Shown: positions 9,900-14,215 of the stretch, piece by piece
How the letters are laid out: each line of letters begins with the position of its first letter
Position numbering within the stretch: the stretch's first letter is position 1
Origin: an uncultured Spirochaetales bacterium
GTDB taxonomy: Bacteria; Spirochaetota; Spirochaetia; JAFGDJ01
Assembly (NCBI GenBank): GCA_964410865.1
Contig: CAYPIQ010000005.1
Coordinates: forward strand, 7,037 to 71,036
Length of the DNA stretch: 64,000 nucleotides
Direction of reading: 5' to 3'
Program-made: the position numbers and the translations under genes
The notes under the pieces: model-generated
The model's database searches: none
Told to the model about the DNA's origin: nothing
What the model saw: the letters and a program-made list of their open reading frames with translations, nothing else

Positions 9900-11084
9900 A
9901 TGGTTTTGGAAATCAGTGGAGACGGTAAAAAATCACTCCAGATAAAAACCCCATATCATGAATCTGTCGTAAATGCCATGCGCACCATTCCGGGGAGACA
10001 TTGGTCTGCCGTAAAAAAGGTTTGGTTAATCCCGGATACACCCTTTCACCGTGAAAAGCTGCTTTCTTCCCTGTATGAAACGAAACTCTTTACCTATCAG
10101 CCGAACCGGAAAGATGATTCAACTAATCAGAAGCATCTGTACCTTCGATTCCATCAGGCTGCCCGTACCCGTCATTTTAGCTCGAGGACGGAAAAGAGTT
10201 ACCGACAATGGATACAAAGATACCTCCACTACTATAACGGGCTCGAACCGGAAAATCTCACAGGGTCACATATCAACAAATTCCTTTCGTATCTTGCCGT
10301 GAAAAGAAAGGTAAGTCCCTCTACCCAGAATCAGGCTTTGGCTGCGCTTTTCTTCCTCTATAAACAGGTGCTCAACAAAAAGGTTGATGATCCTGATTCG
10401 ATCATTCGAGCGGAAAAACCTAAACGGCTTCCTGTTGTTTTAAGCAAAACAGAAGTGAAAAAGGTCATCTCACATGTACCCGAGGACAAAAAGCTAATAG
10501 CCGCTCTTCTGTATGGAACCGGAATGAGGTTGATGGAGTGTTTACAGCTCCGCGTAAAGGATATTGATTTAGAGTGTAATGAAATACGAATCAGGGATGC
10601 GAAAGGCGCAAAGGACCGGATCACGATGATCCCGGAATCACTGAAAACAGAATTGAAAAAGCAATTAACTCGCTCACAGTTGATTCACAAGCAGGATCGT
10701 TCTGCAGGGTGGGGCCGTGTACAGCTTCCCTATGCAATTGAGCGAAAATATCCGAATGCATCTGCAGAATGGCAATGGCAATGGGTCTTTCCCCAGCAAA
10801 AGCGATGGAACAATCCTGAGACTGGAGAAGAAGGAAGACACCACATAGATCCCTCTCTCGTGCAGAAAGCAGTAAAGAAAGCCGTTCTTGCAAGTGGAAT
10901 AACCAAGCGAGCCTCCTGCCATACATTCAGGCACTCATTTGCAACACATCTTTTGGAAGACGGCTATGACATACGAACAGTTCAAGAGCTGTTGGGCCAC
11001 AGTGATGTAAAAACAACAATGATCTATACCCATGTGCTGAATCGAGGTCCACAAGGAGTAAAAAGCCCCCTGGATGGGTTATGA
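9900..11084 (+). CDS. intI: Integron integrase with N-terminal extension (394 aa)
   Basis: SAM-like domain ([12 protein letters not shown]), GMR, [21 protein letters not shown], IYTH, plus the IntI-specific insertion [26 protein letters not shown]. Confidence 0.96.
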   Translation: [394 protein letters not shown]

Positions 11085-11266
11085 TATTAAGACATTGGAA
11101 AAGGAGAATTATACGGACCCGGATAAAATGGTTCTTTATTATGTGGGAAACCTATACTGTTTCTGAGAAGTGAATTACACAGTAACCAGAATATATTCAT
11201 AGCAGATTATACGGACAAATGGATACCAACCGGTGTTTATACGGGTCAGTAGAATTTATGTTATAT
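11085..11266 (+). other. attI region of the integron
   Basis: Core G/TTATAT at 11260-11266; GTTATATAGCAA is the exact reverse complement of TTGCTATATAAC at the end of cassette 1; three TTATACGG direct repeats upstream. Confidence 0.8.
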
Positions 11267-11316
11267 AGCAAAAAAAATTAAAGTAATATAATGAATAATT
11301 TAATAAGGGAATATAG

Positions 11317-12369
11317 ATGATAGAAATCTATTTTGATGAAGCAGGTAACACTGGACATGATTTATTAAATTCTGAGCAGCCCCTCTATGTTCTAAGTTCA
11401 ATAAAAATATTAAATGATGTAGCAAAGCAAAAATTAGAAAGTAGTTTTACTGATATTGATCTATTGCATTTTAAAAGGAAAAAGAATTCTGCCTCTGGAA
11501 GAAAAGAGATTCTTGATTTTTGGGATAAAAACTTTGATTTTTTGAACGAAAATAGTAAAAGTATAGTAATCCATAAAAAATACATGATTGTCTGTCAAAT
11601 GTTAAATTATTTGGTAGAACCACAGTTATATGAAGATGGAATTGATTATTATGATGCCGGGATGAATATTGGTCATTCAAATATGATGTATATGTGCATT
11701 CCTGGTTTTTGTGGTAGTGGTTTAGCCAATATGCTTTATAAAGCATTTATAAATATGTTTAAAATTAAAGATCAAAAATCAATAATTACATTTTATAAAC
11801 TATTAGATTTAATGGAGAAAAAATCTAGTTCGGAAGAATTTAAAACTGATATATTCATTCTTAAAAGATCGATAACAGAAATAAGTGAAACTCTACAAAT
11901 TGTCAATAAATATGTTTTAGATCCTTCTATGCATTCATTAATTTCTTTGATTACTCTATGGAATAATGAATTAGAAGAGGAATTCAATGTATTTCATGAT
12001 AGATCAAATACAATATTGAATCAAAAAGAAATCTTGGATTTTCTCAACGATATAGAAGGTGATGAACAAAGTATTGGATATGGAGAGTTTAAAGCAACAT
12101 TTCCTATCAAAATGGATAGCTTTCGATTTATTAGTAGTGATAACTTTTCAATAAAAATAGTAGATATAATTAGCAGCAGCTTATTATATGTATCAATAAA
12201 TGATGATGATTTTGCTAAAGAGCTTAATAAAATAATATCTAATTGGAAGTGGACTAATAATATTATGCCTTCTTCAAATGTAGAACCTATTCCAGAAAGA
12301 ATAAAACGACAAGGAGATATTGATTCATTAGATTTCTTTGCAAAAAAGATAATTGAAAAAGGATTGTAA
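11317..12369 (+). CDS. Integron cassette 1: DUF3800-like (RNase H fold) protein
   Basis: N-terminal IYFDEAGNTG and C-terminal IKIVDII motifs; very AT-rich; bounded by attI and attC1. Confidence 0.78.
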   Translation: MIEIYFDEAGNTGHDLLNSEQPLYVLSSIKILNDVAKQKLESSFTDIDLLHFKRKKNSASGRKEILDFWDKNFDFLNENSKSIVIHKKYMIVCQMLNYLVEPQLYEDGIDYYDAGMNIGHSNMMYMCIPGFCGSGLANMLYKAFINMFKIKDQKSIITFYKLLDLMEKKSSSEEFKTDIFILKRSITEISETLQIVNKYVLDPSMHSLISLITLWNNELEEEFNVFHDRSNTILNQKEILDFLNDIEGDEQSIGYGEFKATFPIKMDSFRFISSDNFSIKIVDIISSSLLYVSINDDDFAKELNKIISNWKWTNNIMPSSNVEPIPERIKRQGDIDSLDFFAKKIIEKGL

Positions 12370-12376
12370 AATTGCT

Positions 12377-12511
12377 ATATAACAACCACTTGGAGTTGAC
12401 CTGGCGGTGAATATGGCAAAGAGATTGTTGATTTGGAGAACAGGGGTTACAATGGTTAAAGTGATAGGGCTAAGTAAGGACAGCGCCAGGCAACTCAAGT
12501 GAACGTTATCT
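12377..12511 (+). repeat. attC1 (135 bp)
   Basis: R'' ATATAAC, L'' CACTTgGAGTTGaCCTGGCG, L' CGCCAGGCAACTCAAGTG, R' GTTATCT; two extrahelical bases. Confidence 0.93.
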
Positions 12512-12530
12512 TGAAAAAAGAGGAATATAG

Positions 12531-13445: not shown

Positions 13446-13555
13446 CATGGCGGTGAATGTGGCAAAGACATTGTGTTTTTGAAGGACTGGAGTTACAATT
13501 GCTAAGAAAGTGTTTTACTCGATGCGGCGCCATGCAGCTCAAGTGAACGTTAAAT
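13423..13555 (+). repeat. attC2 (133 bp)
   Basis: R'' AGATAAC, L'' CACTTgGAGCTGaCATGGCG, L' CGCCATGCAGCTCAAGTG, R' GTTAAAT; homologous to attC1 with compensatory changes. Confidence 0.93.
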
Positions 13556-13800
13556 TTCAAGATTGTGTACTAAATCAAGGCAAAAGAACGACGGTAGTCA
13601 GTGAGCTGGTAAAAGTGGTTACCTTATGGGTTTTCACTAATACAAAATATTTTATTTGTTTCTTATAGTACCACTTTTCCTAGCTCATCGGGGATAAGCT
13701 CTGATAGTACATCTCTTTCGATTTTGCCTTTGTTTACATTCATTCTTTATGAACGAACGTAGTCTTTCGAGATATCGATGAACGCTTTCGAGATCTTGAA
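13550..13800 (+). other. Integron cassette 3 body: ORF-less, internally palindromic
   Basis: Start GTTAAATTTCAAGAT matches the reverse complement of ATCTTGAAATTTAAC at 13793-13807; no long ORF; nested inverted repeats 13577-13730. Confidence 0.8.
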
Positions 13801-13952
13801 ATTTAACATGTCGTTGGAACAGCCAAAACCTTTTGTCACGGTTTTTGCGGTTCTTCTTTAGGAATGCTTGTTGTAACAACGCGGCAAAAACCGCGCCAAT
13901 CCTTCGGCCTCTCGGCCTCAGGCCGGTTTTGCTGCTCAACTCGTCGTTATGT
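13801..13952 (+). repeat. attC3 (152 bp, different family from attC1/2)
   Basis: R'' ATTTAAC, GTTGgAACAGCcAAAACC pairing with GGTTTTGCTGCTCAAC, inner stem CGGTTTTTGC/GCAAAAACCG, R' GTTATGT. Confidence 0.85.
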
Positions 13953-13978
13953 TGACGCCTTCGGCGCGGAGGAGAAAA

Positions 13979-14194
13979 ATGAAGAAGATGATTTGCTTTA
14001 CCTTATTTTTTCTATCAATGGGAGTGTATGCACAAGATATACAAACAACCACAATCTCAATATTCCAGAAAGCGTATAATGTTAAATTTATTGTCATATC
14101 AGGGGACGCATATATAAACTGGACAGATTTTATGGCCAATCAGCAAGGTAACAACTTAGATATCAACAAATTACATTTGTTTAACTCAACATAA
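13979..14194 (+). CDS. Integron cassette 4: small secreted protein (71 aa)
   Basis: GGAGG SD then MKKMICFTLFFLSMGVYA|Q signal peptide; cassette start GTTATGTTGA matches end TCAACATAAC. Confidence 0.7.
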   Translation: MKKMICFTLFFLSMGVYAQDIQTTTISIFQKAYNVKFIVISGDAYINWTDFMANQQGNNLDINKLHLFNST

Positions 14195-14215
14195 CAATAA
14201 AGCGGTAAAATTGTG
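14189..14215 (+). repeat. Truncated attC4 (R'' arm only)
   Basis: R'' ACATAAC present; no complementary L'/R' arm found downstream. Confidence 0.55.

Follow-up and report, generated by a model that had tools for sequence, protein, structure and literature searches.

The 64,000-nt stretch of contig CAYPIQ010000005.1 examined here (the window), from an uncultured Spirochaetales bacterium, very probably carries a small chromosomal reverse integron, in which an intact integrase gene (intI) points toward its own attI site and toward three attC-bounded cassettes that are followed by a terminal fourth with a truncated attC. On the + strand, intI, attI and the cassettes follow one another in that order, and the locus is a reverse (inverted-integrase) integron, a new example of an established type.

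The integrase gene and its orientation

Judged from its sequence, the 394-aa product of the gene at 9900-11084 (+) is an integron integrase of the IntI subfamily. The NCBIfam integron-integrase model TIGR02249 matched the protein at 453.5 bits (cutoff 265), Pfam returned the Phage_integrase and Phage_int_SAM_4 domains, and an alignment with VchIntIA (PDB 2A3V, E = 2.5e-83) spanned the IntI-specific insertion, which sets IntI apart from XerC/D and here occupies aa 276-299 (nt 10725-10796) with the patch LPxAxxxKYPNAxxEWxWQWVFP. The catalytic set (R210, K235, H341, R344, H367 and Y376) was complete, and these residues were invariant across an alignment with 17 relatives. An earlier note on this DNA, made from the sequence alone, had raised the possibility that the integrase might group outside the IntI clade; the TIGR02249 score above cutoff and the 2A3V alignment with its insertion place it inside. 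The best match in a scan of the GTDB was 56% identical; IntI relatives were taken from one genome per species.

The loci of these relatives were scanned for attC-like sites by the same method as the window. In seven loci (L001, L002, L009, L012, L016, L023 and L017, the last from a Treponema denticola metagenome-assembled genome, MAG), every attC-like site, up to 12 in 10 kb, lay downstream of intI on the same strand, and co-oriented intI and attC sites were also found in loci from Planctomycetota, Aminicenantales, Nitrospira, NC10 and Cyanobacteria. The proteobacterial controls (L074, L038 and L080) came out with the classical layout, attC sites upstream of intI and on the opposite strand, so the scan can see both arrangements. 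A rough, midpoint-rooted neighbour-joining tree without bootstrap placed the window IntI in the co-oriented group, apart from the divergent proteobacterial IntIs, and its nearest relatives with detectable arrays were all co-oriented. The co-orientation of intI with attI and cassettes described in the earlier note was therefore borne out, with an IntI that clusters with those of co-oriented Treponemataceae integrons and a spirochaete as host. That note had also called the arrangement unusual and reported from Treponema and related spirochaetes; it has indeed been published there, but it proved less unusual than stated, since the closest relatives, from several phyla, have it as a rule. The atypical structure of the T. 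denticola integron recurs in other Treponema loci (Wu et al. 2013, PMC3607928), an "inverted integron-integrase group" has been discussed (Cury et al. 2016, PMC4889954), and "unusual or reverse integrons" have been listed for T. denticola, A. baumannii, Chlorobium and Blastopirellula (Tansirichaiya et al. 2019, PMC6557892), where the chromosomal integron of T. denticola is credited to Coleman 2004 (as cited in PMC6557892).

The attI site and the cassette boundaries

The attI region (11085-11266, +) was delimited by a boundary match, by motif copies and by its conserved position and core. Its G|TT crossover lies at 11260-11262, 176 nt past the intI stop, in the core ..GAAT TTAT GTTATAT, and four copies of an 11-nt motif, TTATACGGRYC, precede it, at 11109-11119 (+), 11116-11126 (-), 11207-11217 (+) and 11237-11247 (+), those at 11109-11126 forming an inverted pair. 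Four copies in 139 nt of attI compare with three, each with one mismatch, in the other 63.8 kb of the window. The crossover likewise lies 156-220 nt after the intI stop in six Spirochaetota relatives out of seven checked (about 507 nt in the seventh, L009), and an alignment of the window with those six showed conservation of an AAT-N4-TGTT core and of TTAT..GGAYCAG-like repeats. The layout resembles that of attI1, an L/R core plus accessory binding sites, and by this analogy the repeats may be bound by IntI.

The GTT crossovers at 11260 (attI), 12505, 13549 and 13946 and the cassette ends (...AAC) at 12383, 13429, 13807 and 14195 define four cassettes. The start of each matches the reverse complement of that cassette's end without mismatch, over 12, 14, 15 and 10 nt (cassettes 1-4, respectively), the match of cassette 1 running from 11260 to 11271. 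Such complementarity is the footprint of strand exchange by IntI at G|TT, in which the R' half-site beyond the cut is part of the following cassette. With the fixed GTT/AAC excluded, the chance probability of each match at fixed register is 4^-7 to 4^-12, and four such matches cannot plausibly be due to chance. The coordinates given in the earlier note were right to within a few bases, and its four match lengths were all exact.

Three attC sites with a common geometry

The first three cassettes each end in a full attC site on the + strand: attC1 (12377-12511, 135 nt; R'' ATATAAC, R' GTTATCT), attC2 (13423-13555, 133 nt; R'' AGATAAC, R' GTTAAAT) and the G+C-rich attC3 (13801-13952, 152 nt; R'' ATTTAAC, R' GTTATGT). 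When all 64 kb were scanned for imperfect AAC...GTT hairpins, the three sites fell within the top four (ranks 1, 2 and joint 3-4), with attC1 at the top. Alignment of their arms revealed that the R box is followed by 3-4 unpaired spacer nucleotides and then by a stem of at least 18 pairs, with one extrahelical base each at positions 9 and 16 after AAC in the R''/L'' arm (G and A in attC1 and attC2, G and C in attC3). The textbook site attC(aadA7) has the same 9/16 bulge geometry, which was also present in nearly all attC-like sites downstream of intI in seven Spirochaetota loci. When the bottom strands were folded as single-stranded DNA, z scores ranged from -1.6 to -4.0, with the two bases bulged from the R''/L'' arm, and attC3 folded at -31.4 kcal/mol (z = -3.95).

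Covariation across the arms of 42 sites from many loci, in an ungapped alignment, pointed in the same direction, with 72.5% of cells paired versus 55.5% after shuffling, and 208 double-change cells versus 87; none of 500 shuffles reached the observed value, and slid controls were lower. Within the window, attC1 and attC2 are 82-92% identical and their stem differences are compensated on both arms, so that two attC families are present, attC1/2 and the unrelated attC3, which resembles neither attC1/2 nor any fetched locus except L081, a contig with the same sequence as the window. The hairpin scan detected no further attC sites and no clusters of attC sites lacking integrases in the 64-kb window, and a search of 11000-14800 against Rfam gave no match, to an attC family or otherwise, even at E <= 1 (one tRNA was found in the whole window). 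The earlier description of three full attC sites with extrahelical bases on the + strand thus agrees with both arm alignment and folds, and the failure to fold canonically that it had held up as a possible objection was not seen, R and L boxes, unpaired spacer and extrahelical bases all being found.

A truncated fourth attC

The fourth site (14189-14290, +) is a truncated or degenerate attC4, consisting of R'' only (ACATAAC, 14189-14195), which overlaps the stop codon of the cassette 4 open reading frame (ORF), followed by a short unrelated hairpin (GGAATCTT / AAGATTCC), with no L' or R' and no GTT crossover. Every GTT within 1.5 kb was scanned, and no R' partner for this R'' rose above chance: the best downstream partners scored no higher than the 99.9th percentile (22) of a window-wide null whose maximum was 24, and none lay in the attC size range. 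A candidate at 14502 (ACCGCCGTTTGTTAAAA) that could have completed attC4 scored 12, the 90th percentile of the null, and was rejected. In the minimum-free-energy fold of the region, R'' was unpaired. An independently assembled contig from the same reads (L081) is 100% identical to the window over 9572-14361, so an end-of-contig effect does not explain the truncation. Lacking a usable 3' attC, cassette 4 is not an intact mobile unit, and the array consists of three cassettes plus a fixed terminal one. Of the four intact units counted in the earlier note, the fourth R'' arm and its 10-nt match are present, but only three units are intact since the fourth lacks an R' partner.

Proposed recombination and expression

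By what is known of its family, IntI would bind the folded bottom strand of attC, with the two bases that bulge from the R''/L'' arm (positions 9 and 16) imposing the choice of strand, and would exchange strands at G|TT, with attI for insertion and with a second attC for excision. Cassettes 1-3 would then still be excisable and reshufflable, and cassette 4 would stay fixed. The cassette genes come with ribosome-binding sites of their own and would most likely be expressed by read-through from the intI promoter, by weak internal promoters, or by both. No terminator intervenes between intI and these genes: no terminator-like site was found on the + strand from intI to 13912. Promoter-like matches in the region did not exceed those in shuffled sequence, and the scan for promoters and terminators showed no enrichment.

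Cassette contents

Cassette 1 (11261-12505, +, GC about 26%) carries an ORF at 11317-12369 for a 350-aa protein, which matched DUF3800 (E = 3.6e-5, 24.9 bits, cutoff 21) and, over its full length, the phage family phrog_12991 (E = 1.1e-54), with no sequence match in PADLOC or the PDB. Cassette 2 (12506-13549, +, GC about 22%) carries an ORF at 12531-13445 for 304 aa, and its product is a predicted zinc-ribbon PD-(D/E)XK nuclease, with an N-terminal C4 zinc ribbon followed by a nuclease core of D169 and E182-x-K184. Its family comprises 335 clusters at 50% identity, with C36, E96, D97, D169, E182 and K184 unchanged throughout and a conservation of at least 90% at C9, C12 and C39. PF22558 (REase-ARP) matched 33 of 64 sampled members, and PDDEXK_13 or NERD matched others. 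An AlphaFold2 model built from a multiple sequence alignment reached a mean predicted local distance difference test score (pLDDT) of 94.9, and a single-sequence model (pLDDT 40.8) was not used; Foldseek found nothing in the PDB below E = 0.046 for the former, its weak top matches being PD-(D/E)XK nucleases. The only PADLOC match was a marginal one to PDC-M15A (E = 7.5e-4), which does not establish a role in defence.

Cassette 3 (13550-13946, +) consists of a 259-nt body (13549-13807) with long internal hairpins, followed by attC3, and its body contains no ORF on either strand beyond chance ORFs of 20-30 aa. The body folds as RNA more stably than shuffled sequences (z = -5.5 on the + strand and -6.4 on the - strand) and includes an 18-bp stem (13602-13619 / 13670-13687); neither an Rfam match at E <= 1 nor a sigma-70-like site was found in this cassette. 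ORF-less cassettes of Treponema act as promoters (PMC6557892). Cassette 4 (13947-14195, +) carries an ORF at 13979-14194 for a 71-aa protein, starting with ATG behind the ribosome-binding site GGAGG and bearing a signal peptide (...GVYA|QD), and ends in the R'' ACATAAC described above; searches of Pfam, NCBIfam, PADLOC and PHROG gave no family match for this protein. Relatives of cassettes 3 and 4 were found in no fetched locus other than L081, and the array holds no resistance genes. Chromosomal integrons have been viewed as stores of phage-related and defence-like functions, and a cargo of one DUF3800/phage-family protein, one predicted nuclease, one structured cassette without an ORF and one small secreted protein agrees with that view but does not extend it.

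Probable source of cassettes 1 and 2 in a shared pool

Cassettes 1 and 2 have a GC content of 21-27% in a host of about 50%, and their attC type, at 83-92% identity, was found in 44 metagenome contigs with a GC content of 24-46% (most 26-35%) and up to six sites per contig, copies of attC1 being 85-92% identical. Given this low GC relative to the host and an attC type common in AT-rich metagenomic arrays, the two cassettes were probably captured from a foreign cassette pool. The earlier proposal that two attC families imply cassettes from different sources is supported by the recurrence of the attC1/2 type in these metagenome contigs. As an observation on the cassettes themselves, cassettes 1 and 2 also have near-identical translation-initiation regions, at 11296-11319 (GGGAATATAGATG) and 12510-12533 (AGGAATATAGATG), which together with the shared attC family suggests a common origin.

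Two of these contigs, L126 and L116, carry integrons. L126 carries an AT-rich, co-oriented intI whose product is 67% identical to the window IntI over the C-terminal 119 aa, with the crossover GTTATATGG, and L116 carries at 3671-6049 a classical divergent integron with an attC1-family cassette, an IntI 45% identical to that of the window, and the attI crossover GTTATATGGTGT at 5080 with a 12-nt boundary match. Like the window, both have attC sites 83-92% identical to attC1, the R'' ATATAAC, an attI crossover GTTATAT... and AT-rich cassettes. Since an attC1-type cassette occurs in the divergent L116 as well as in the co-oriented L126, one cassette pool serves both integron layouts, which provides a concrete case of AT-rich cassettes of one attC family circulating among integrons that differ in orientation and in integrase.

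An N-terminal HARP-like domain in IntI

The alignment with VchIntIA starts only at residue 83 of the window IntI, and the roughly 80 residues that precede it include an N-terminal extension of about aa 1-66 (9900-10097, +) that is HARP-like by its match to Pfam PF07443 and by a profile comparison with the structure 4O66. The window protein itself matched PF07443 weakly (E = 0.0014-0.0017, 18.3-18.5 bits, below the curated cutoff of 25), 25 of 30 homologous IntI N-termini matched it at E <= 0.1 (best 4.1e-6), and a profile of these N-termini matched the HARP structure of SMARCAL1 (4O66) at E = 3.5e-4 over 33 residues. Alignments showed the first 65 or so IntI residues to be conserved in Spirochaetota, Nitrospira, NC10, Omnitrophota and Paceibacterota; the HARP-like N-terminus was also present in the IntIs of L001, L002, L012, L016, L017, L013 and L019, with the consensus PYD..L..A....PGR.WD...K.WL.PDT, and was absent from proteobacterial IntI proteins and VchIntIA.

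HARP domains, as in SMARCAL1, recognise forked junctions between single-stranded and double-stranded DNA, and such a domain in a recombinase of folded single strands is suggestive, as a lead and not a result. If functional, the domain could tentatively be regarded as an accessory DNA-binding arm that captures the folded attC hairpin or binds the TTATACGG repeats of attI, and it may be linked to the reversed integron layout. No paper in the literature collection searched links a HARP domain to integrons, and to our knowledge no HARP-like feature has been described for the IntI proteins studied so far, nor has the recombination biochemistry of reverse integrons received much study. The HARP-like domain and the repeated attI motif together form the most useful lead for specialists, with possible roles in site recognition by reverse integrons.

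The host chromosome and the island around the integron

The window averages about 50% GC and contains ordinary chromosomal genes, including those for a pyrophosphatase, MttB-family methyltransferases and a ferredoxin oxidoreductase. The pyrophosphatase is 82-88% identical to proteins of Spirochaetales/Spirochaetia MAGs, which indicates that the host is a spirochaete and not a known Treponema. Over 1354-8901 and 18570-20192 the window shows synteny with a related strain (JGI 3300033145), and the 9.7-kb region between (8900-18570) is not shared with that strain's syntenic contigs L086 and L087, both of which end before reaching it. This region contains an IS66 zinc-finger fragment (8851-9177, -), a fragment of a PrsW protease gene (9488-9715, -), the integron, a yloV-degV-plsY block (14611-18189), an IS30-like transposase C-terminus (18239-18442, -; identified from its sequence alone, Pfam giving no match) and what is left of a truncated M20 peptidase gene, its C-terminal end (18596-18850, +); in L087 this gene is longer and is cut by the contig end. 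The integron thus sits in a mosaic, strain-variable island, at which no intact transposition genes or terminal repeats were found.

The yloV-degV-plsY block has a GC content of about 40%, shares 97%, 93% and 81% nucleotide identity with L083, L084 and L085, whose flanks are different, and among named proteins is closest to those of Bacteroidales (Anaerophaga and Paludibacter, 76-78%, versus 54% for a Spirochaetales MAG). The block probably represents an operon gained by horizontal transfer, and the Bacteroidales affinity of YloV is misleading as to the host because the block itself is compositionally foreign. L083, L084 and L085 all start within 400 bp upstream of yloV. The yloV coding sequence also contains a 64-nt near-perfect AAC...GTT palindrome (15881-15944), which is symmetric, has no bulges and ties for second place in the hairpin scan.

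Several further features were noted elsewhere in the window. A G+C-rich hairpin (CCCCGCC..GGCGGGG) marks a repeat some 80-110 nt long, with at least two copies in the window (36416-36527 and 21629-21705) and one at the end of L086 (17616-17727); it may be an element like the repetitive extragenic palindromic (REP) sequences, and the assembly break at the end of L086 is probably due to it. A 351-aa ORF at 48981-50036 with fragmentary matches to H+-pyrophosphatase lies directly upstream of the intact gene for a 731-aa Na+-pyrophosphatase (50070-52265) and may be a duplicated pseudogene. The ORF at 32681-33994, which joins a partial domain like the RuBisCO large chain to a sugar-binding regulator domain and adjoins an MtnA-like gene of the IF-2B family (34946-36130), is likely a frame fusion or pseudogene. 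Three MttB-family genes (trimethylamine methyltransferase-like) at 39116-45143 (-), all scoring below the equivalog cutoff, probably encode non-pyrrolysine MttB homologues for the use of methylated amines.

Active integron, fossil or artefact

Several points weigh against the reading as a small reverse integron. There are no more than four cassettes, the last with a truncated attC; the surrounding island varies between strains and contains IS66 and IS30 fragments along with gene remnants, a setting as compatible with decay as with activity; and no sigma-70-like cassette promoter (Pc) was found between intI and cassette 1 (+ strand, 10600-11316). At 152 nt, attC3 is longer than the commonly quoted range of 57-141 nt, and all three sites have a top-strand G (bottom-strand C) at position 9, where classical attC sites and most relatives have C on top and G on the bottom.

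The alternative that survives best, although unlikely, is that the locus is an integron by descent and now an inactive fossil, a few cassettes frozen in a decaying island with an IntI that no longer recombines. The short array, the truncated terminal attC and the lack of a recognisable Pc would all suit a fossil, as would the flanking IS66, PrsW, IS30-like and M20 peptidase fragments and the absence of 8900-18570 from the syntenic contigs that stop short of it. Against a fossil speak a full-length intI with its catalytic residues and IntI patch intact, three attC sites of perfect geometry in which the differences between attC1 and attC2 are compensated, and boundary matches that are undegraded. 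Overall, the intact intI and attC sites argue for a small reverse integron that may still be active, and the short array, truncated end and decaying neighbourhood urge caution.

It is very improbable that the co-orientation, or the whole locus, arose from a metagenome assembly that joined different organisms. Such a join could account for the fall in GC from 52-59% to 21-45% across the locus and for the adjacent yloV-degV-plsY block, 97% identical to an unrelated contig and with Bacteroidales as named relatives, and the Logan contigs of the same run do leave 14362-14655 unbridged. However, L081 reproduces 9572-14361 base for base, from the host-like 5' flank through the truncated attC4, the outer flanks are both syntenic with one related strain so that two separate misjoins would be needed, and co-orientation is common to all close IntI relatives. 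That the repeats are other palindromes, such as REP-like elements, miniature inverted-repeat transposable elements or terminators, beside a tyrosine recombinase has next to no likelihood, for although intergenic hairpins are common and the palindrome in yloV scores equally, that one lacks the bulges that the three sites carry exactly at 9 and 16 like the attC sites of relatives, covariation strongly supports the attC structure, the cassette-specific exchange of R' is the signature of IntI recombination at G|TT, and the same attC type forms arrays beside intI genes elsewhere.

Comparison with known integrons

A small reverse integron in a spirochaete chromosome has its nearest counterparts in Treponema, whose integrons share with the window the spirochaete host and a place in the chromosome, the 9/16 bulge geometry in attC sites of about 105-150 nt, and an attI about 160-220 nt after the intI stop. 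The IntI of the T. denticola MAG (L017) also shares the HARP-like N-terminal extension, and ORF-less cassettes are known from Treponema integrons (PMC6557892), as cassette 3 is in the window. The window differs in several respects: its IntI is only 48-57% identical to the IntIs of Treponema integrons, the host is a non-Treponema member of the Spirochaetales with about 50% GC, and the array holds just four cassettes where that of T. denticola holds tens. Its attC sites bear no sequence relation to those of Treponema and have G at position 9 in place of C, and its cassettes are far more AT-rich than the host. With the inverted group in other phyla (Chlorobium, Blastopirellula, cyanobacteria and others; PMC4889954, PMC6557892) the window shares co-orientation. 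The IntIs of the co-oriented loci sampled from Planctomycetota, Nitrospira, NC10, Aminicenantales and Cyanobacteria cluster with its own; most of them lack the HARP-like extension, which those of Nitrospira and NC10 have.

The integrons of V. cholerae (VchIntIA, 2A3V) and of class 1 agree with the window in recombinase family, IntI insertion, catalytic residues and cassette boundary rule, and their attC sites have the same architecture of R box, unpaired spacer, L box and two extrahelical bases 6 nt apart, as in attC(aadA7). They differ in that intI is divergent from the array, with Pc in or next to intI and pointing away from it, and in that their IntIs have no N-terminal extension; the V. 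cholerae array is moreover much larger, and class 1 integrons are borne on transposons or plasmids with resistance genes, of which the window has none. A strict definition of sedentary chromosomal integrons, with more than 20 cassettes and highly similar, host-specific attC sites, does not cover a locus of four cassettes and two attC families. Mobile integrons are borne on transposons or plasmids and have few cassettes with heterogeneous attC sites; here the array is small and its attC sites heterogeneous, with IS66 and IS30 fragments at the island edges, and the wider context is chromosomal. To the reverse integrons already known, the window adds a well-resolved one from a non-Treponema spirochaete, with intI, attI and the cassette boundaries mapped to the base.

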